A stretch of 64,000 nt of DNA from Escherichia coli. GTDB taxonomy: Bacteria; Pseudomonadota; Gammaproteobacteria; Enterobacterales; Enterobacteriaceae. Below the pieces are notes generated by a model that was not told the DNA's origin, ran no database searches, and saw only the letters and a list, made by a program, of their open reading frames with translations. This document shows positions 1,364 through 49,050 of the stretch, piece after piece. How positions within the stretch are numbered: position 1 is the stretch's first letter; each line of letters starts with the position of its first letter. Made by a program: the position numbers and the translations under genes. Location: assembly GCF_002854065.1 (NCBI RefSeq), contig NZ_CP024147.1; one strand, given 5' to 3'.

Positions 1364-2557
1364 GTGTTTCAAAAAGTTGACGCCTACGCTGGCGACCCGA
1401 TTCTTACGCTTATGGAGCGTTTTAAAGAAGACCCTCGCAGCGACAAAGTGAATTTAAGTATCGGTCTGTACTACAACGAAGACGGAATTATTCCACAATT
1501 GAAAGCCGTGGCTGATGCAGAAGCGCGCCTGAATGCGGTGCCTCATGGCGCTTCGCTTTATTTACCGATGGAAGGGCTTAACAGCTATCGCCATGCCATT
1601 GCGCCGCTGCTGTTTGGTGCCGACCATCCGGTACTGCAACAACAGCGCGTAGCAACCATTCAAACCCTTGGCGGCTCAGGGGCATTGAAAGTGGGCGCGG
1701 ATTTCCTGAAACGCTACTTTCCGGAATCAGGCGTCTGGGTCAGCGATCCTACCTGGGAAAACCACGTAGCAATATTCGCCGGGGCTGGATTCGAAGTGAG
1801 TACTTACCCCTGGTATGACGAAGCGACTAACGGCGTGCGCTTTAATGACCTGTTGGCGACGCTGAAAACATTACCTGCCCGCAGTATTGTGTTGCTGCAT
1901 CCATGTTGCCACAATCCAACGGGTGCCGATCTCACTAATGATCAGTGGGATGCGGTGATTGAAATTCTCAAAGCCCGCGAGCTTATCCCATTCCTTGATA
2001 TTGCCTATCAAGGATTTGGTGCCGGTATGGAAGAGGATGCCTACGCCATTCGCGCCATTGCCAGCGCTGGATTACCCGCTCTGGTGAGCAATTCGTTCTC
2101 GAAAATTTTCTCCCTTTACGGCGAGCGCGTCGGCGGACTTTCTGTTCTGTGTGAAGATGCCGAAGCCGCTGGCCGCGTACTGGGGCAATTGAAAGCAACA
2201 GTTCGCCGCAACTACTCCAGCCCGCCGAATTTTGGTGCGCAGGTGGTGGCTGCAGTGCTGAATGACGAGGCATTGAAAGCCAGCTGGCTGGCGGAAGTAG
2301 AAGAGATGCGTACTCGCATTCTGGCAATGCGTCAGGAACTGGTGAAGGTATTGAGCACAGAGATGCCAGAACGCAATTTCGATTATCTGCTTAATCAGCG
2401 CGGCATGTTCAGTTATACCGGTTTAAGTGCCGCTCAGGTTGACCGACTACGTGAGGAGTTTGGTGTTTATCTCATCGCCAGCGGTCGCATGTGTGTCGCC
2501 GGGTTAAATACGGCAAATGTACAACGTGTGGCAAAGGCGTTTGCTGCGGTGATGTAA
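1364..2557 (+). CDS. tyrB: aromatic amino acid aminotransferase
   Basis: ORF track frame 1322..2557; likely GTG start at 1364 ([14 protein letters not shown]...) giving 397 aa; class I aminotransferase motifs ([16 protein letters not shown]). Confidence 0.9.
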
Positions 2558-2778
2558 TGCAGGAAAGCAGGCTGGAGTTACCCAGCCTGCAGTGAAATTA
2601 AACTGTCGTCGCTTTCACTCTTTCTTTATAGATGATTTTTTTGATGCCATCGTTCTACGTAAGAGATAATAAACGTTGTTAGTTCTTTTATTGTTAAGCT
2701 TATCCCAATTATCTGGAATTCCTTATCCTGTTTTTTTGTGTGGAGTAATAATTTCTGCACATCTAACCATTATTAAAT

Positions 2779-3264
2779 TTAATAATAAGTATCGGGTTTG
2801 TTACGATAGAATTTTTCTATATCCTCAAGAATATGCTTTGCCTTATTGCCTGTGACTTTCTGAGATTCAATTATAGTATCGTTAAATTCTAAAGTTAAAG
2901 AGAACTCTTTTTTTCCGCTTTGTGTAAGTTTAACCTTATATTGATTACCAATATCAAATAAAAAGGTCCTGTAATGAGAATAATCACCTTTAACCTCCTC
3001 GGCAAAACAGCAAAGCGTGCAAATATACATAAAATCTTTCTTACCCCTGATTTTGTTAACTAAATCAATAAATGCGTGAAAAACTGTACTTGCAATAGAA
3101 CTTGATACTTCTTCTCCAGGTCTACAAAAATCTTTTGCAATTTTTAACTGTGTTTCTATATATAAAAAAAGATCTATGGCATAAGAGATATCTTTGTTAT
3201 TTAGTGCATCTAGCTCAACAGGTAAAGATGTCATTTTGTTGTTGTTCACATATGATATATTCAT
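2779..3264 (-). CDS. hypothetical protein, AT-rich gene of unknown function (161 aa from Met-14 of the 174 aa ORF)
   Basis: Uninterrupted minus-strand ORF 2779..3303 in a markedly AT-rich segment between tyrB and aphA; internal ATG at 3262-3264 is preceded by GGAG with an 8 nt spacer; no recognisable motif, no signal peptide. Confidence 0.5.
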   Translation of the reverse strand: MNISYVNNNKMTSLPVELDALNNKDISYAIDLFLYIETQLKIAKDFCRPGEEVSSSIASTVFHAFIDLVNKIRGKKDFMYICTLCCFAEEVKGDYSHYRTFLFDIGNQYKVKLTQSGKKEFSLTLEFNDTIIESQKVTGNKAKHILEDIEKFYRNKPDTYY

Positions 3265-3386
3265 ATCATCATCTCCATCGGGAGTAATAAAATTAGTCAC
3301 CATTGTAGGGTAGGGTTCTGGTCAATCAGAAATCATCTTTATAAACTTCGATTGTTTTTGTAATGCTGTATCATTAAGTTCATTAA

Positions 3387-4379
<993 letters not shown>

Positions 4380-41881: not shown

Positions 41882-42171
41882 ATAAATCTCCATTTATCAT
41901 TTATGTCGTAAATATGTAATCCATGCAAAATACGTCATTTAAAGCTGGTGTTATCATAATTGGGAAATTGCGACTTTAATAAGTGGAAGTGTGAGCAGAA
42001 CGATCCATTTTATTAGGCATTTGTGCTGAAGAGGGAAAATTACGGCATATTTATTACTATCATCAATAATGTGACCTGACTTATATTTTTATTATTTATA
42101 TTACTTTCAGCTTTCACTTCGACAAGAAGTACGCACAATGATTAATTAGATGAATGATGCGGAGTGTAACC

Positions 42172-42879
42172 ATGAAACCCGTCGTGCTGGTGGTGGATGA
42201 TGACACGGCTATCTGCGCACTGTTGCAGGACGTGTTAAGTGAACATGTCTTTACGGTTTCAGTCTGCCATACCGGACAGGAGGCCATATTGCGTATTGAG
42301 GGCGATCCTGACATTGCGCTGGTGGTGCTGGATATGATGCTACCCGATACCAACGGCCTGAGGGTATTGCAGCAAATCCAGAAACTGCGTCCGACATTGC
42401 CGGTGGTGATGTTGACCGGCATGGGCAGTGAGTCTGATGTGGTGGTCGGGCTGGAAATGGGCGCGGATGATTACATCTGCAAACCGTTCACCCCGCGGGT
42501 GGTGGTCGCACGACTGAAAGCGGTGTTGCGACGGGTTGGTGCGCTGGCGGTTAATGACGAGAAAAGCGCCGGGCTGTCATTCAATGGCTGGTATCTCGAT
42601 ACCATGCGCTGCCAGTTGCACAATCCGCTTCAGCAACATGTCGAGTTAACTCAGGGCGAATATGGCTTGTTACTGGCTCTGGCGCAAAACGCGCGTCGGG
42701 TATTGAGCCGCGAGCAGTTGCTGGCGTTCACCCACAGCGACAGCGTGGAGGTGTTTGATCGCACCATCGACGTATTAATCATGCGCTTACGACGCAAAAT
42801 CGAACTCAACCCGCATCAGCCGATGTTGATTAAAACTCTGCGCGGTCTGGGGTATGTCTTCGCTGCCGACGTGCATTAA
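42172..42879 (+). CDS. OmpR/PhoB-family response regulator (REC + winged helix)
   Basis: MKPVVLVVDDD...VVLDMMLPDTNG receiver motifs; C-terminal wHTH (LTQGEYGLLLAL...LRGLGYVF); GGAG 7 nt upstream of ATG. Confidence 0.85.
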   Translation: MKPVVLVVDDDTAICALLQDVLSEHVFTVSVCHTGQEAILRIEGDPDIALVVLDMMLPDTNGLRVLQQIQKLRPTLPVVMLTGMGSESDVVVGLEMGADDYICKPFTPRVVVARLKAVLRRVGALAVNDEKSAGLSFNGWYLDTMRCQLHNPLQQHVELTQGEYGLLLALAQNARRVLSREQLLAFTHSDSVEVFDRTIDVLIMRLRRKIELNPHQPMLIKTLRGLGYVFAADVH

Positions 42880-43877
42880 TCCGACATTTCTGTTTGCAGC
42901 TCTTCCAGCGTTTTCGCCCCGTCGATGGCATTGGCGCATAACAGGCTTGCCCGCGCGCAGGCGTGTGCCAGTTTGATGCTCTCGGTAAGCGTCCAGCGTT
43001 CATGGCAGCCATATAAAAATCCGGCACAAAATGCATCGCCCGCGCCGACGCTGCCGATAATTTCCCGTTGTTCTAACTTTTGCGAAGGGATCCACACGCC
43101 GCCCTGTTCTGGGGTCTCTCCCCACGCCCCTTCCGGGCAGTGGATCACCACCCGCTGGCGCACGCCCGCATCTAACAGTTCACGCGCGGCGGCAGCAATA
43201 TGCGCGATATGCGGTTCGCCGTTGGGTAACCGAATTTCCAGCCCGCTAAACTCCCCGGCCTCCAGTTCGTTAATTACCAGATAATCCAGATGGCGCAACG
43301 CGGGCAGCACCAGCGGCTGATAACGCGGATCGCCCTTACGGGAGACCAGGTCGAGTGAGGTTTCAAAGCCAGTATCACGCATTTGCGCCAGCAGGCGTGC
43401 GCTACGGGTGCCGTAAACATCGTCCGGCATATCCAGGCTGTCGAGCAACAGTAAATAGCCGAGATGGAAAATCTTCATGGTGTTATCGAGCTGATCGAAC
43501 GCCGGAAGATCCAAAAGTCTGTTTGCACCCGGCGAATGGAAAAACGTCCGCTGCCCGCTTGGGTCTGTCATCACCTGCGACATCGACGTCGGGGCAAAGG
43601 TAGTGCGCTGCACATGCTGACGATTGACGTGATATTGCTCAAGCATCGCCATGATGTAATCGCCGTCGCTGTCCTGACCGATTAGCCCAACCGCCTGTAA
43701 CGGTAGCCCGGTGCGCATTTTCGCCAGCGTCAGCAGGACGTTAAGCGGCGCACCGCCGGTGGAGCGTTCGCTGTGGGTGATCTCCGCCAGCCAGCCGCGC
43801 TCTGGCCACTGGATAATCTGATGGACGTGGTCAACCAACATATTGCCTGCGGCGATAATCCCTTTACGCTCCATCAT
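42876..43877 (-). CDS. PfkB-family carbohydrate kinase
   Basis: 333 aa; N-terminal GG motif (GGAPLNV) and PfkB signature VGAGDAFCAGFL. Confidence 0.82.
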   Translation of the reverse strand: MMERKGIIAAGNMLVDHVHQIIQWPERGWLAEITHSERSTGGAPLNVLLTLAKMRTGLPLQAVGLIGQDSDGDYIMAMLEQYHVNRQHVQRTTFAPTSMSQVMTDPSGQRTFFHSPGANRLLDLPAFDQLDNTMKIFHLGYLLLLDSLDMPDDVYGTRSARLLAQMRDTGFETSLDLVSRKGDPRYQPLVLPALRHLDYLVINELEAGEFSGLEIRLPNGEPHIAHIAAAARELLDAGVRQRVVIHCPEGAWGETPEQGGVWIPSQKLEQREIIGSVGAGDAFCAGFLYGCHERWTLTESIKLAHACARASLLCANAIDGAKTLEELQTEMSD

Positions 43878-44734
43878 GCCTGCCCCGCACTGCCAAAAAT
43901 ACGCATCTGTTGTGCAACCGTATCGCTGATGGCGGCTTCCACTGCCAGCAGTAACTCGGCAAACTCGTCATACATCGGCTGACGGTGCGCCATTCGGGCC
44001 TCAACGGCAGCCAGCGCCGCTTGCGACATGCCAGTGTAGAAATTGATTTTGTGGATACCCAGTTCGATGGCGCGGCGGAAATCGGCATCACTAATCCCTG
44101 AGCCGCCGTGTAATACCAGCGGGATAGCAGCCTGCTGGCGGATAGCGTCGAGGCGCGGGAAATCGAGTTTCGGTTCGCCGCGATATTTGCCGTGTGCATT
44201 GCCAATCGCCACGGCCAACGCGTCAATGCCGGTACGGTCGACAAAATCACGCGCCAGTTGCGGATCGGTAAACAGGGATTCATCGGCATGACCATAGAGC
44301 GCACCGCCTTCGTCGCCACCCACCGCGCCCAGTTCAGCTTCTACCGATACGCCAACGGCATGGCACATTTTCACCACTTCCCGCGTCTGGCGGACATTTT
44401 CTTCATACCCCAGCGTGGAGCCATCAAACATTACCGAGCTGAATCCCAGCCGCAACGCTTGCACCACCGATTCAAAATGCAGTCCGTGATCGAGATTTAA
44501 CACCACCGGAATGGCATGACGCGCCGCTTCAAATTTCACTGTCTCGACCAGGGAATCCAGCGAGATATATTTAAAATGTACTTCGGCAATGTTGATAATA
44601 AAGGGCGAACGTTCTTGTCTGGCAGCAGCAAACAAGGCGCGTAAAAAGTGCGAGTCCAGCACATTAAACGCACCTAACGAATAGTGATGTTCGCGGGCAT
44701 GTGCCAGCCCTTCAGCGAGAGAAATCAATGGCAT
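43874..44734 (-). CDS. class II (zinc) ketose-bisphosphate aldolase, FbaA/GatY/KbaY family
   Basis: 286 aa; MPLISLAEGLAHAREHHYSLGAFNV, LNLDHG and LVLHGGSGI motifs. Confidence 0.82.
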   Translation of the reverse strand: MPLISLAEGLAHAREHHYSLGAFNVLDSHFLRALFAAARQERSPFIINIAEVHFKYISLDSLVETVKFEAARHAIPVVLNLDHGLHFESVVQALRLGFSSVMFDGSTLGYEENVRQTREVVKMCHAVGVSVEAELGAVGGDEGGALYGHADESLFTDPQLARDFVDRTGIDALAVAIGNAHGKYRGEPKLDFPRLDAIRQQAAIPLVLHGGSGISDADFRRAIELGIHKINFYTGMSQAALAAVEARMAHRQPMYDEFAELLLAVEAAISDTVAQQMRIFGSAGQA

Positions 44735-44748
44735 AACTTTATCCTTAT

Positions 44749-45432
44749 TCAGCGGAACTGGCGGTATTCGTTACACAATACCAACTGTGCAGGTTCGTCT
44801 TCGTCAATCAGGTTGTAGCGGGCCAGCGGGCGTAAAAAGTGGTTATCATGGTCGTCGTCATTGACTGAAGAGACTTCGCCAACCAGCACATCGCCAAAAC
44901 CGGTTTCCGCCCAAAAACTGTGATAAAGGCCGGGTGGCAGGCAGATACTTTCGCCGGGGGTCAGGCGTAACTGACTGCCTGCGACATGGGTCTGGCGGCA
45001 GCCGTCGATCACCACCGTAACGTCGGTATCAACTGTTTGCTCGTTGCTATCGGCATTCCACAGTTCAACAATCAAATTGCCGCCGCCGCGATTGATAATG
45101 TCCTCGCGCTTACGCCAGTGAAAGTGCATTGGCGTGACCTGCGCATCGCGCACATGCATGATCTTCTCGGCGTAACATTTCACATACGGCATTCCTTTTG
45201 CTGAGCCGTTACGTAGGGTAAACAGCGTCAGCCCCTGTGCTGCAAAGTTGTTGCCACCAAAAGCGGTAACATCCCAGCCGAGTTTGAGATCAAAAACTTC
45301 CTCCCACGCGGCGGTGTCGAGCTGCTGCCATTGGGCAGGCGAGAAACTGGCAAAGGGCGGAAGATGTACGTCATGTTGCGAAAAGAATTGCCGTGTATGG
45401 CCGAGAATGTCGTTTATAGCGGAGCGTTTCAT
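44749..45432 (-). CDS. cupin-type sugar isomerase (D-lyxose/D-mannose ketol-isomerase-like)
   Basis: 227 aa; cupin motif 1 HFHWRKRED and motif 2 PPGLYH; sugar-catabolic context. Confidence 0.7.
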   Translation of the reverse strand: MKRSAINDILGHTRQFFSQHDVHLPPFASFSPAQWQQLDTAAWEEVFDLKLGWDVTAFGGNNFAAQGLTLFTLRNGSAKGMPYVKCYAEKIMHVRDAQVTPMHFHWRKREDIINRGGGNLIVELWNADSNEQTVDTDVTVVIDGCRQTHVAGSQLRLTPGESICLPPGLYHSFWAETGFGDVLVGEVSSVNDDDHDNHFLRPLARYNLIDEDEPAQLVLCNEYRQFR

Positions 45433-45486
45433 CGAAAGCGTTCTCCTTAGCGGTGGCCGGGCAGCATCGCCGCCCGGCGTGTGGAC

Positions 45487-46428
45487 TTATTTCACCGTCC
45501 AGCCTTTGTAATTGCCGACGTTGTTTTTATCGATCATCGTCACCGGGATCAGCACCGGCTCTTTCGGCGCAGGTTTGCCCTGCAAAATGTCGTAGCCAAT
45601 TTCCACCGCTTTCGCTGCCATCACCTGGGGATCTTGCGCCGGAGTAGCGACAAACAACGAGTTCTCACGCTTGAGCGCCTCTTCGGCGTCCGGGCTTCCG
45701 TCCACACCGACAATAAAGAACTCGTTACGTTGCGCCTGTTTTGCTGCCAGATCGGCACCGATTGCGGTGGGATCGTTAATCGCAAATACGCCGTCGATCT
45801 TCGGATTTGCTGCCAGCAGTCCCGTCATTACCTCCAGCCCGCCTTCACGACTGCCTTTCGCGTTCTGGTTGTCAGAGAGCACTTTGATGTCAGGATGGCG
45901 TTTAAATTCAGTCTGGCATCCTTCGACGCGGTTTTGCACGGCGGATACCGGCGGGCCGTTGATGATCACCACATTGCCTTTGCCTTTCAGGCGATCGGTG
46001 ATGTATTTACAGGCCATTTCGCCCGCCTGGGTGTTATCGGAGGTGATGGTGGCATCAGCACCTTCTGCCGCTACGTCAACCGCGACAACTACGATCCCGG
46101 CATCTTTCGCCCGTTTCACCGCCGGGCCGATCCCTTTTGAATCGGCAGCGTTGAGGATAATCATATCGACGTTAGCGGCGATAAAGTTGTCTATCTGCGA
46201 CACCTGCTGACCCAGATCGTAGCCGCTGGAAACCAGCGTCACTTTGACGTTATCGCCTGCCAGTTTGCGTGCTTCCAGCTCCGCGCCTTTGGTGATCTGC
46301 ACGAAGAACGGGTTCGCCAGATCGCCCACCGTTACGCCTATTGATTTCAGTTCTTTCGCTTGGGCGAACGGTGCTGCGGCCAGCAGCGCGCCTGCACAGA
46401 GCGCGGTCACTAAGGGCTTCAATCTCAT
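45487..46428 (-). CDS. periplasmic monosaccharide-binding protein (ribose/allose-type)
   Basis: 313 aa; signal peptide MRLKPLVTALCAGALLAAAPFAQA; PBP type I fold hallmarks. Confidence 0.85.
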   Translation of the reverse strand: MRLKPLVTALCAGALLAAAPFAQAKELKSIGVTVGDLANPFFVQITKGAELEARKLAGDNVKVTLVSSGYDLGQQVSQIDNFIAANVDMIILNAADSKGIGPAVKRAKDAGIVVVAVDVAAEGADATITSDNTQAGEMACKYITDRLKGKGNVVIINGPPVSAVQNRVEGCQTEFKRHPDIKVLSDNQNAKGSREGGLEVMTGLLAANPKIDGVFAINDPTAIGADLAAKQAQRNEFFIVGVDGSPDAEEALKRENSLFVATPAQDPQVMAAKAVEIGYDILQGKPAPKEPVLIPVTMIDKNNVGNYKGWTVK

Positions 46429-46446
46429 GCTGTATTCCTCATGTGT

Positions 46447-47421
46447 TTATGCACTTTGATGGTGTCGGGTACGGTATTTGTCGATCAGCACCGCAATGAT
46501 GATCACCGCCCCTTTGATCACCAGTTGCCAGAAGTAAGAGACGCCCATTAAGGTCATGCCATTGTTGAGCGTGGCGATAATTAGCGCGCCGACCAGCGTG
46601 CCGGTGATGGTGCCGATGCCGCCGACAAAACTGGTGCCGCCGAGGATCACCGCCGCAATGGCGTCCAGCTCGTACCCCATACCTAAGTTGCCGTTGGCGC
46701 TGTACAGCCTTGAGGCGTTCATAATTCCGCCCAGCCCTGAAAGCAGGCCGCTCATACCATAAACAAACAGCAGCACCAGCCAGACCTTAATGCCGGTAAG
46801 ACGCGCCGCCTGCATATTGCCGCCGACGGCGTAGATATGAACGCCAAGCGTGGTGCGGCGCAGAATAAACCAGCACAGCACAATCACTGCGAGGGCAATC
46901 ACCACCAGCCACGGGACCGGCCCGAGATAGTTATTGCCTATCCACTCGAAATTAATGTTGGAGTTGATAACCGTGGTGCCGTCCGCCAGCAGATACGCCG
47001 CCCCGCGCAGCGCCGTATAGGTGCCAAGCGTGACGATAAACGGTGGCAATCCGGCAAAGGCCACCAGCGCGCCGTTGAACAGCCCCAGCAGCAGGCCGAG
47101 CATCAGCGCCGCCGGGATCGACAGCATGGCGAACTCAGGGCTAAGGGAGACGACCATCGCCGCCACCGCTGTGGTGCCGAGGATCGAACCCACGGAAAGA
47201 TCGATCCCGCCGGTCAAAATGATGAAGGTCATCCCCGCGGCCAGAACAATGTTGATCGATGCCTGGCGGGTAATATTCAGCAGGTTGCTTTCGGTAAAAA
47301 AGTTTGGCGCGATAAAGCCAAATACCGCCACGATCAGAATCAAAATGGGCAAGATGCCGACCGTTTGCATCAGATCGCTCATCAGCATTTTTTTGGCAGA
47401 AGTCTTTGCAGAGGTCGTCAT
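46447..47421 (-). CDS. sugar ABC transporter permease (RbsC/AlsC-like)
   Basis: 324 aa, ~10 TM segments. Confidence 0.85.
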
Positions 47422-48937
47422 GAGGGCACCGCCTGGGAATGGGCGTCGTTGACGCCAGTCGCTAAGGTCATAATGTTTTCCTGGGTGATGTTTTTGCCGT
47501 TTAACTCACCGGCAATGCTGCCTTCGCGCATCACATAGACGCGATCGCTCATTCCCACTATCTCCGGCAGTTCGCTGGAGATCATCAGGATCGCCACGCC
47601 CTTGCGCGCCATCTCGTTCATGATCCGGTAGATCTCGCTTTTTGCGCCAACGTCCACGCCGCGGGTGGGTTCATCGAGCAGTAAAATGCGCGGCCAATTG
47701 CCACCCAGCGGGAGATCAACAGCTTTTGCTGATTGCCGCCGGAAAGCCCGCCCGCGCGTACCTGGGCATGAGGCACGCGAATGTTGAGCAACTTGATGGC
47801 GTCATCGGAAATGGTTTGCGCTTTTTTGCGATTGAGCATTCCCCAGCGGGCATCGCGCTCCAGGGTCGCCATGGTGATGTTTTCGGCTGCCGCCATTTCA
47901 AGGAACAGCCCCTGTTCTTTGCGATTTTCGGTGAGAAAGCCAATGCCAAGATCGATGGCTTCGCGCGGGGAGTGGATCACCACCGGTTCACCATCGACTT
48001 CAATCATTCCGCCTGTCGCTTTCCGCACGCCGAAGATCAACTGCGCCAGTTCGGAACGTCCGGCACCCACCAGTCCGGCGAGGCCAACAATTTCGCCGGA
48101 ACGCACCAGCAGGCTACTCGGCTGGACTTTGCCGCCGTCGGTCAGGTGGTGAACATTCAGGCGGGCTTTACCGAGCGGGATATCGCGCTCTTTATTGAAC
48201 AGATCGCTCAGTGGCCTGCCGACCATCATCCGCACCAGCTCCCCGGCATTGAGGTTATCGCGGGTCAGGCTGCCAACGTATTGCCCGTCGCGCAGCACGC
48301 TGACGCGATCGGAAAGCTCATACACTTCCGCCATGCGGTGGCTAATGTAGATAATCGCCATCCCTTCATCGCGCAGCCGCATAATCAGTTCAAACAGGCG
48401 GTGAGTTTCGCGGGAGGAGAGGGCGGCGGTGGGTTCGTCCATCACCAGAATGCGGCTGTTGCGATGTAGCGCGCGGGCGATTTCGACCTGCTGTTGCTCG
48501 GCAATGGTCAGTGTCATGACCTTATCGCTGGCGTTAAACTGCGCGCCGAGGCGGTCGATCACTCTTTGCGCCTGCACCAGCATCTCTTTACGCTGCACCA
48601 GCCCGCCGTGGGAAAGCTCGCTACCGAGGAAAATGTTCTCTGCCACCGTCAAATTGGGCGCCAGCTGCATCTCCTGATAAATCAGCGTAATACCGGCGCT
48701 TAAGGCATCTTTTGGCGTGCGAATGTGAAAGGGCTTGCCGTCTATGAGGATCTCGCCGCTGGTGGCGGTATACGCCCCCGCCAGCACCTTCATCAGCGTG
48801 CTTTTTCCCGCGCCGTTTTCCCCCATCAGGGCATGGATCTCGCCAGGGTAGACCGTCAAATCCACCCCTTTGAGCGCATAAAATTTGCCGAAGGCTTTGG
48901 CAATATTGCGCATCTCCAGAACTGGCGTGCTGTTCAT
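47418..48937 (-). pseudogene. sugar ABC transporter ATP-binding protein (double ABC module), frameshifted near 47690-47700
   Basis: N-module Walker [10 protein letters not shown]; second signature LSGGNQQK; frame A ends ...[13 protein letters not shown] while frame B carries the expected continuation [13 protein letters not shown]...; consistent with a 1 bp loss in ggccgcgc (expected [10 protein letters not shown]). Confidence 0.75.
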
Positions 48938-49050
48938 GGTGGACTCCTGCGAGGTTGTCGATATCAGCACTCCATCACAGGAAAGTAAATGCAAAATGTC
49001 AGAAGCCGTTCATATTTGTCATATTGCGATTTTTCTTCACGGAGCGTGAT

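Follow-up and report, generated by a model that had tools for sequence, protein, structure and literature searches.

Background

The fucIKA and rhaBAD systems of Escherichia coli each combine an aldose isomerase, a ketose 1-kinase and a class II ketose-1-phosphate aldolase, and their substrates are L-6-deoxyhexoses. Mammalian ketohexokinase (KHK, a PfkB family member) and aldolase B take fructose to fructose 1-phosphate and then to dihydroxyacetone phosphate (DHAP) plus glyceraldehyde, and IolC and IolJ pair the PfkB and class II aldolase families through a 1-phosphate intermediate. The present work concerns three adjacent genes, for a cupin D-lyxose/D-mannose isomerase, a PfkB family kinase and a class II aldolase, at 42876-45432 of a 64,000-nucleotide stretch of E. 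coli contig NZ_CP024147.1 (assembly GCF_002854065.1), the whole of which is called the window. The trio was singled out in an earlier note made from the sequence alone, and the open reading frames (ORFs) and the Pfam and NCBIfam results agree with that description. The locus is the O-island OI-167 of E. coli O157:H7 EDL933 (Z5684-Z5692). We propose that the kinase may form a ketose 1-phosphate and that the aldolase may cleave it to DHAP and a short aldehyde, a reading whose chance we put a little short of even.

The fuc and rha pathways have the same three-step logic and the same kind of products (DHAP plus a short aldehyde) as are proposed for the island, but their enzymes are not homologous to the island trio, being FucI/RhaA isomerases, FGGY kinases and AraD-like (PF00596) aldolases. 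The YdjH/YdjI pair of E. coli K-12 is encoded by adjacent genes and belongs to the very two families represented by the island kinase and aldolase. Its substrates are long-chain keto-acids, and RefSeq names the two proteins octuluronate (L-glycero-L-galacto-octuluronate) kinase and 1-phosphate aldolase. The island aldolase is 40% identical to YdjI and the island kinase 24% identical to YdjH, with no orthology between the pairs. YdjI, like the island aldolase, lacks the arginine of the "DPR" motif (see below), but has Gly rather than Ala at the Ser49 position. The ydj cluster encodes dehydrogenases and major facilitator superfamily (MFS) transporters and no isomerase, unlike the island.

In the sulfo-EMP2 pathway a PfkB family sulfofructose (SF) kinase acts on C1 of the free ketose and SqiA, a PF01116 aldolase, cleaves the 1-phosphate (PDB 8Q57-8Q5A; PMC10665668). 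SqiA is also without the partner-subunit Arg (Ala257 there), and it binds sulfonate via the backbone of Gln51/Lys52 ("GQK"), where the island aldolase has "AEV". Sulfoglycolysis was raised for the island by PDB matches of the kinase to YihV and of the aldolase to SqiA, and was rejected for want of the sulfonate-pocket motif and of accessory genes; no gene for a sulfoquinovosidase, a sulfolactaldehyde (SLA) reductase, SLA processing or an exporter is found in the island. KHK and aldolase B, and likewise the engineered xylulose-1-phosphate pathway in which KHK phosphorylates xylulose at C1 (PMC4918971), match our model in chemistry and by analogy only: aldolase B is a class I enzyme, and KHK is not among the closest matches of the island kinase in a PDB sequence search or in Foldseek. 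With the fuc/rha logic, YdjH/YdjI and SF kinase/SqiA as precedents, the route suggested in the earlier note is not without natural precedent, and to see in it something with no natural counterpart would be an overstatement.

GatY, KbaY and the glycolytic class II fructose-bisphosphate aldolases (FBAs) have PF01116 membership and the Zn, catalytic and 1-phosphate residues in common with the island aldolase, but they keep distal contacts (Ser/Thr and the DPR Arg) that it lacks. The island encodes no GatZ/KbaZ partner. The earlier note had remarked on the absence of an epimerase and of such a partner, and indeed no gene for either, nor for an FGGY kinase, lies between the flanking genes yjcS and yjdP. 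From these sequence comparisons it is plausible that in the island pair the partnership of PfkB kinase and class II aldolase, here joined to a known isomerase, serves a neutral ketose.

Proposed route

In the route as we propose it, a CUT2 ABC system would bring in the free aldose, and the isomerase EcSI would turn D-mannose into D-fructose, or D-lyxose into D-xylulose, activities that are experimentally established. The PfkB kinase would then add phosphate at C1 of the ketose, and the aldolase, lacking a distal-phosphate site, would split the resulting ketose 1-phosphate, giving DHAP plus D-glyceraldehyde from fructose 1-phosphate or DHAP plus glycolaldehyde from xylulose 1-phosphate. This reading is favored because kinase and aldolase genes are linked across phyla, because the 1-phosphate and catalytic sites of the aldolase are kept, and because its distal Ser and Arg are lost, the Arg being absent also from the monophosphate-type aldolases YdjI and SqiA. 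The co-linearity of the genes, their overlaps and their cross-phylum synteny are such as would be expected of an operon running from isomerase through 1-kinase to 1-phosphate aldolase.

The first enzyme of the route is secure. The window protein scores 439 bits against NCBIfam NF051472 (cutoff 350; the corresponding Pfam family is PF07385) and is ~95% identical over all 227 residues (E 9e-154) to the "D-lyxose isomerase" of PDB 3KMH/3MPB; it is the known EcSI (Z5688), a D-lyxose/D-mannose isomerase whose crystal structure and biochemistry are already established. The 2010 EcSI paper (van Staalduinen et al.) is said to deal with the isomerase only, and with neither kinase nor aldolase; the isomerase by itself reportedly enables growth of K-12 on D-lyxose. 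EcSI figures in the later literature as one of the D-lyxose isomerases that catalyze D-mannose/D-fructose interconversion as well (PMC8378251). In the literature on Z5685-Z5691, and on lyxose isomerase together with kinase, aldolase or ketose 1-phosphates, we found no characterization of the kinase or the aldolase.

Active site of the aldolase

The window aldolase belongs to PF01116 (E 1.1e-91) and scores 578 bits against NCBIfam NF005284 (cutoff 406), while its scores against GatY (250 vs. 383) and KbaY (187 vs. 542) fall below the cutoffs. Its conserved residues D82, H83, E134, H181, G182, H209, G211, S212, N231 and T234 are those of a class II enzyme. We aligned 48 kinase-linked aldolases with three crystallized Gram-positive FBAs (from S. 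aureus, B. anthracis and B. methanolicus), with E. coli GatY, KbaY and YdjI, and with the sulfofructose phosphate (SFP) aldolase 8Q57; E. coli FbaA was compared by motif position. In the numbering of PMC10665668, Asp82, Glu134, Asn230 and the three Zn histidines are present without exception in the 48 kinase-linked aldolases. All 48 likewise keep Gly181, Ser211 and Thr/Ser233 of the 1-phosphate pocket, and 47 keep its Gly210.

The other end of the substrate is another matter. The 6-phosphate of fructose 1,6-bisphosphate (FBP) is bound by Ser49, Arg259 and Arg280 of the partner subunit, the last of which is replaced by Ala in SFP aldolases (PMC10665668). At the Ser49 equivalent (Ser61 of E. coli FbaA) the FBAs, GatY and KbaY have Ser or Thr, YdjI and SqiA have Gly, and the kinase-linked aldolases have Ala in 46 of 48 cases. 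At the Arg280 equivalent (the "DPR" Arg; FbaA Arg331) the FBAs, GatY and KbaY have Arg, YdjI has Phe, SqiA has Ala, and the 48 kinase-linked aldolases have mostly Phe (23) or Tyr (15), with Leu in five and Arg in a single one. In the window aldolase, A50 and F258 stand at the two positions, so the distal-phosphate Ser and Arg that mark an FBP or tagatose 1,6-bisphosphate (TBP) aldolase are not found in it. The third contact (Arg259 in H. pylori) is Gln in Bacillus-type FBAs and hence not diagnostic. No conserved basic residue that could substitute in binding a distal phosphate is apparent in the alignment of the 48 kinase-linked aldolases. This pattern, with the C1 phosphate site kept and the distal anchor lost, is the one to be expected of a ketose-1-phosphate aldolase acting on substrates with a neutral tail; as a statement of function, the name "ketose 1,6-bisphosphate aldolase" given in RefSeq is probably mistaken.

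That name is also the name of the NCBIfam equivalog, and as such it speaks for a conventional entry into glycolysis, in which the kinase would phosphorylate the ketose at C6 (or C5), as a divergent fructokinase that yields fructose 6-phosphate (F6P), and the aldolase would either use a ketose 1,6-bisphosphate supplied by the Pfk of the host or be a redundant FBA/TBP aldolase. There are parallels in the E. coli gat and aga pathways, which depend on host PfkA for their bisphosphate. We consider this arrangement, the strongest of the alternatives, unlikely, though still to be reckoned with; in all the bona fide FBP and TBP aldolases compared, the distal phosphate is held by a Ser and an Arg that the aldolase family lacks.

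The same residues bear on a scheme in which the aldolase homolog is a ketohexose-6-phosphate 4-epimerase served by a ketohexose 6-kinase, taking, for example, D-talose to D-tagatose, tagatose 6-phosphate (T6P) and F6P. D-lyxose isomerases are weakly active on D-talose. A PfkB kinase and a PF01116 homolog reportedly act in this manner in A. tumefaciens (Wichelecki et al. 2015), and the NCBIfam "tagatose kinase" model does match the island kinase, if weakly, at 24.7 bits. The cutoff of that model, however, is 420 bits, the scheme needs a 6-phosphate rather than a 1-phosphate site where the aldolase family shows the reverse, and the GH92 gene context described below indicates mannose, not talose. 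The scheme is highly improbable. Fructose 6-phosphate aldolase and T6P epimerase were also considered as activities for the family and found unlikely, the 1-phosphate pocket being strictly kept and the 6-phosphate contacts lost.

A distinct PfkB subfamily

The kinase belongs to the PfkB family (PF00294, E 1.2e-35, residues 29-322). In an alignment of 54 family sequences, G41, G42, N203, E206, G278, G280 and D281 are invariant and A279 nearly so; these make up the GG dipeptide (41-42), the NxxE motif and the C-terminal GAGD (278-281) with its catalytic Asp. An exhaustive profile search places the kinase in a distinct, well-populated PfkB subfamily, whose 321 representative clusters (E<1e-30) share 35-50% identity with the window protein. 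It scores below every NCBIfam cutoff, among them those for IolC (73 bits vs. 300), ribokinase (68 vs. 300), 1-phosphofructokinase (1-PFK; 51 vs. 292), fructokinase (46 vs. 450) and tagatose kinase (given above). Its best PDB sequence matches are weak as well, the SF kinase YihV (7AG6) at E 2e-10 and YdjH at 1e-7.

A single-sequence AlphaFold model of the kinase proved unusable (predicted local distance difference test, pLDDT, 37), and the model was rebuilt with AlphaFold2 from the 54-sequence alignment, giving a ribokinase-like fold with pLDDT 95.9. In Foldseek searches with PDB as the target, ribokinases, YdjH, YihV and 2-keto-3-deoxygluconate (KDG) kinase are nearest, all about 20% identical; with AFDB50 as the target, unnamed members of the subfamily come first and are followed by proteins auto-named "YdjH". 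Outside the subfamily, the closest relatives, all of them weak, are YdjH-like kinases, the SF kinase YihV and IolC, and all of these phosphorylate a CH2OH group adjoining a keto group. For a fructokinase of the conventional kind one can point to the "GxRTFF" lid motif of the island kinase, which we take to resemble the "GERSF" of fructokinases; the score of only 46 bits against the fructokinase model stands on the other side.

Some clostridial orthologs of the kinase, 404 aa long, carry an XRE-type HTH_3 domain at the N-terminus, in fusion with PfkB (L097 10001-11215; L066; L082), an architecture that suggests a combined kinase and regulator.

Gene neighborhoods across bacteria

Scanning a single genome of each species with the kinase family alignment yielded 80 loci, and 82 were scored after metagenomic contigs were added. 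Neighbors were counted within a radius of 5 kb; many contigs are cut short, so the counts are lower bounds. A PF01116 aldolase gene accompanies the kinase gene in 48 of the 82 loci, and a D-lyxose isomerase gene does so in 43. For loci L031-L086 (n = 56), which are nearly all from outside Gammaproteobacteria, the corresponding counts are 23 and 18. Kinase and aldolase genes adjoin one another in Gammaproteobacteria, Bacteroidales, Clostridia, Phycisphaerae and Marinimicrobia; in most cases another kinase is not to be found close by, and several loci are stand-alone operons of two or three genes without any other kinase. In a neighbor-joining tree the aldolase-linked kinases occupy three of the four major clades. 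Enterobacterales, Aeromonas/Tolumonas and Edwardsiella carry the trio or the pair (in Edwardsiella accompanied by an XylE-like MFS porter and a weak mutarotase-like gene), Alistipes and other Bacteroidales have a bare aldolase-kinase-isomerase operon, and in Clostridia the order is kinase-aldolase or kinase-isomerase-aldolase. Other neighbors of the kinase are themselves ketose-forming enzymes, namely MtlD-like dehydrogenases and, inside a Sus polysaccharide utilization locus together with the aldolase, a Zn-dependent alcohol dehydrogenase. A kinase that forms F6P would leave so tight a linkage to the aldolase unexplained in phyla that already have a glycolytic FBA.

In one Bacteroidaceae gut contig (1-13940), present in 263 blocks of the collection, the aldolase-kinase-isomerase set is bordered by five genes for GH92 alpha-mannosidases. 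This context points to D-mannose, and then D-fructose, as the substrate. We consider the hexose branch, from D-mannose through fructose to fructose 1-phosphate, more likely than the pentose branch to be the physiological one, both because of this mannose context and because XylB, encoded within the operon in Aeromonadaceae and elsewhere on the chromosome in E. coli, already handles D-xylulose. The example chosen in the earlier note, D-lyxose to D-xylulose to xylulose 1-phosphate, is weakened on the same two grounds. As the physiological route, ending in DHAP and glycolaldehyde, it would agree with the action of EcSI on D-lyxose, with the RbsB-like binding protein (a pentose-type family) and with the missing distal phosphate site of the aldolase, and a furanose-binding PfkB enzyme would reach only C1 of xylulofuranose. 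D-lyxose is, however, rare in nature, and the clusters have no linked gene for a glycolaldehyde dehydrogenase; we regard this version as improbable.

The pair might instead act on some other ketose or keto-acid, for instance a deoxy or rare ketose, that is not among the products of EcSI on mannose or lyxose, in which case the in vitro substrates of the isomerase would merely approximate the real one. YdjH and YdjI show the same pairing serving exotic substrates, kinase-aldolase pairs without an isomerase exist, the PDB name of the binding-protein ortholog (4RWE) carries no ligand, and the sensor flanking the operon is reported to respond to riboflavin rather than to a sugar. We give this little credence in view of the linked isomerase genes (43 of 82 loci), the GH92 genes at one locus, and the hydrophobic or aromatic residue that takes the place, in the aldolase, of an Arg kept by anion-binding relatives and that speaks for a neutral tail.

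Returning to the ketose 1-phosphate proposal in its hexose form, it is conceivable, and we advance it tentatively, that many bacteria possess a dedicated, fructolysis-like D-mannose route composed of a mannose isomerase, a hitherto unrecognized PfkB ketohexokinase and a monophosphate-specific class II aldolase. Its carriers may include gut Bacteroidales and Clostridia, in which the genes can be part of alpha-mannosidase loci, as well as some 8% of the complete genomes of E. coli, O157:H7 among them.

Several observations weigh against the proposal. The similarities of the kinase to ribokinase, fructokinase, 1-PFK, IolC and YdjH are about equally weak, whether by Foldseek or by NCBIfam, and the sugar position that it phosphorylates cannot be deduced from sequence or structure matches. 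The sequence of 1-phosphate formation and cleavage put forward in the earlier note is favored indirectly, by the aldolase sites and the gene linkage, and not by any regiospecificity that could be read from the kinase. E. coli FruK would turn fructose 1-phosphate into FBP with no need of a special aldolase. The tree includes a Verrucomicrobia-rich kinase clade with neither aldolase nor isomerase as a neighbor. At several loci (L035, L058, L064, L077, L006, L046, L053) the kinase gene stands beside an isomerase or MtlD-like dehydrogenase gene without an aldolase, which is the usual setting of a fructokinase (kinase and isomerase without a nearby aldolase being seen at four loci in all); it would appear that the kinase product can be used without a dedicated aldolase, as an F6P-forming fructokinase allows. 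No conserved gene for disposal of glyceraldehyde or glycolaldehyde is found in the clusters.

The operons of Aeromonas and Tolumonas add a further difficulty. Between the genes for binding protein and isomerase they carry a bona fide xylB (TIGR01312, 577 bits vs. 380), and a Mak-type ROK fructokinase gene (539 bits vs. 443) adjoins the response regulator gene in Aeromonas, Tolumonas and Serratia plymuthica, in clusters whose outer flanks differ. The Mak-type fructokinase and XylB already give conventional entry for both ketoses. The absence of an FGGY kinase, noted earlier for the window, accordingly describes the enterobacterial version only. On the other hand, were the PfkB kinase a fructokinase of the conventional kind, clusters with Mak or XylB would have two kinases doing one job.

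Implications

If the proposed route is real, two widespread genes gain a function, and the name "ketose 1,6-bisphosphate aldolase" would have to be given up. Mannose or lyxose would be used in a manner that bypasses hexokinase or the phosphotransferase system (PTS), phosphomannose isomerase and phosphofructokinase, and the GH92 link would make the route relevant to the use of N-glycans and mannans in the gut. The global regulator Cra has fructose 1-phosphate as its effector, and for this compound no E. coli source other than the fructose PTS is documented (PMC11157272). A cytoplasmic fructose 1-kinase would be a PTS-independent source, and could feed the Cra effector pool of enterohemorrhagic E. 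coli (EHEC). In EHEC the route would sit between the two genes of the virulence-linked RbfSR sensor system, in an island already tied to regulation of the locus of enterocyte effacement (LEE) (PMC9860305). The enzymes would also offer natural bacterial parts for engineered xylulose-1-phosphate and fructose-1-phosphate pathways. The isomerase EcSI and the existence of kinase-aldolase pairings elsewhere were already known; the cross-phylum linkage and the active-site evidence from the aldolase are new.

The island in E. coli

A 7-kb query around the trio matches 421 of 5426 complete E. coli genomes (about 8%) at 90-100% identity, always on the chromosome. RefSeq names for the three E. coli proteins are "carbohydrate kinase family protein", "ketose 1,6-bisphosphate aldolase" and "D-lyxose/D-mannose isomerase". 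Table 1 lists the genes of the window locus together with the additional kinase genes found in related clusters.

Table 1. Genes of the OI-167 locus in the window, and extra kinase genes of related loci
Feature	Position	Strand	Basis and remarks
OmpR-family response regulator RbfR (Z5684), convergent with kinase gene	42154..42879	+	NCBIfam OmpR-like; RefSeq; PMC9860305
PfkB-family sugar kinase, Z5685-type, 333 aa	42876..43877	-	ORF; PF00294; proposed ketose 1-kinase
Class II (Zn) aldolase, FBA/GatY/YdjI family, 286 aa	43874..44734	-	PF01116, NF005284; proposed ketose-1-phosphate aldolase
Cupin D-lyxose/D-mannose isomerase EcSI (Z5688), 227 aa	44749..45432	-	NF051472; PDB 3KMH/3MPB
Periplasmic sugar-binding protein, RbsB-like, CUT2	45487..46428	-	NCBIfam RbsB; PDB 4RWE likeness
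ABC permease, RbsC-like	46447..47421	-	NCBIfam RbsC 271 bits, below cutoff; RefSeq annotation
ABC ATPase, frameshifted here	47418..48937	-	Intact coding sequence in other strains, by alignment
Hybrid sensor histidine kinase RbfS (Z5692), divergent from ABC operon	49051..51315	+	RefSeq coding sequence mapped from L001 15953-18217; TorS/CckA-like by NCBIfam; PMC9860305
xylB / Mak-type genes of Aeromonas/Tolumonas/Serratia loci	L003 5994-7439 and 10909-11823; L033; L030; L025 11925-12833		

In the ORF list the aldolase gene overlaps the start of the kinase gene by 4 nt, and the isomerase gene lies 14 nt upstream of the aldolase gene; gene order and the 4-nt overlaps point to co-translation of aldolase and kinase. 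The best explanation of the six minus-strand genes is that they form a single operon for the import and catabolism of mannose-configured aldoses. A promoter and terminator scan of the operon region gave fewer matches than shuffled controls and is uninformative.

The three importer genes (binding protein, permease and ATPase) lie directly upstream of the trio on the same strand. The binding protein reaches 150 bits against NCBIfam RbsB, below the cutoff. It is ~90% identical to PDB 4RWE, "sugar-binding transport protein", the solved structure of an ortholog with no ligand in its name, and is 84-97% conserved across genera. At about 47691/47692 the window lacks one nucleotide of the ATPase gene (GGG to GG), GCGCGGGCC there being aligned with GCGC-GGCC. 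The reference is strain 100416, which is otherwise 100% identical; O157 TR01 is likewise intact, and in both strains an ATPase coding sequence of 1521 nt is annotated. The frameshift leaves a shortened ORF of 458 aa (47618-48994 in the ORF list). The deletion is either real, making this a pseudogene and the importer dead in this strain, or an assembly error. Delivery of free sugar by the importer, as envisaged in the earlier note, is thus borne out by the genes of the island in general but perhaps not in the strain at hand.

The genes that border the operon encode RbfS and RbfR, published as a riboflavin-responsive two-component system that activates LEE genes in EHEC (PMC9860305). RbfS is TorS-like and the binding protein of the operon is weakly TorT-like, and sugar sensing through a coupled binding protein, as in TorT/TorS, is conceivable.

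OI-167 fills the slot between yjcS and yjdP. In K-12 this slot (region 4304000-4324000) carries the D-allose operon alsRBACEK plus rpiB, so that two alternative rare-sugar ABC cassettes share the one chromosomal site (window about 41900-52100). Both the window (about 51400-52060, plus strand) and strain 100416 have a gene for a GNAT N-acetyltransferase between rbfS and yjdP; this gene is missing from the corresponding position in O157:H7 TR01. Elsewhere in the window, G+C content is low at 2001-4000 (0.41) and at 16001-20000 (0.45-0.48), against about 0.53-0.55 nearby, and these may be other horizontally acquired segments.

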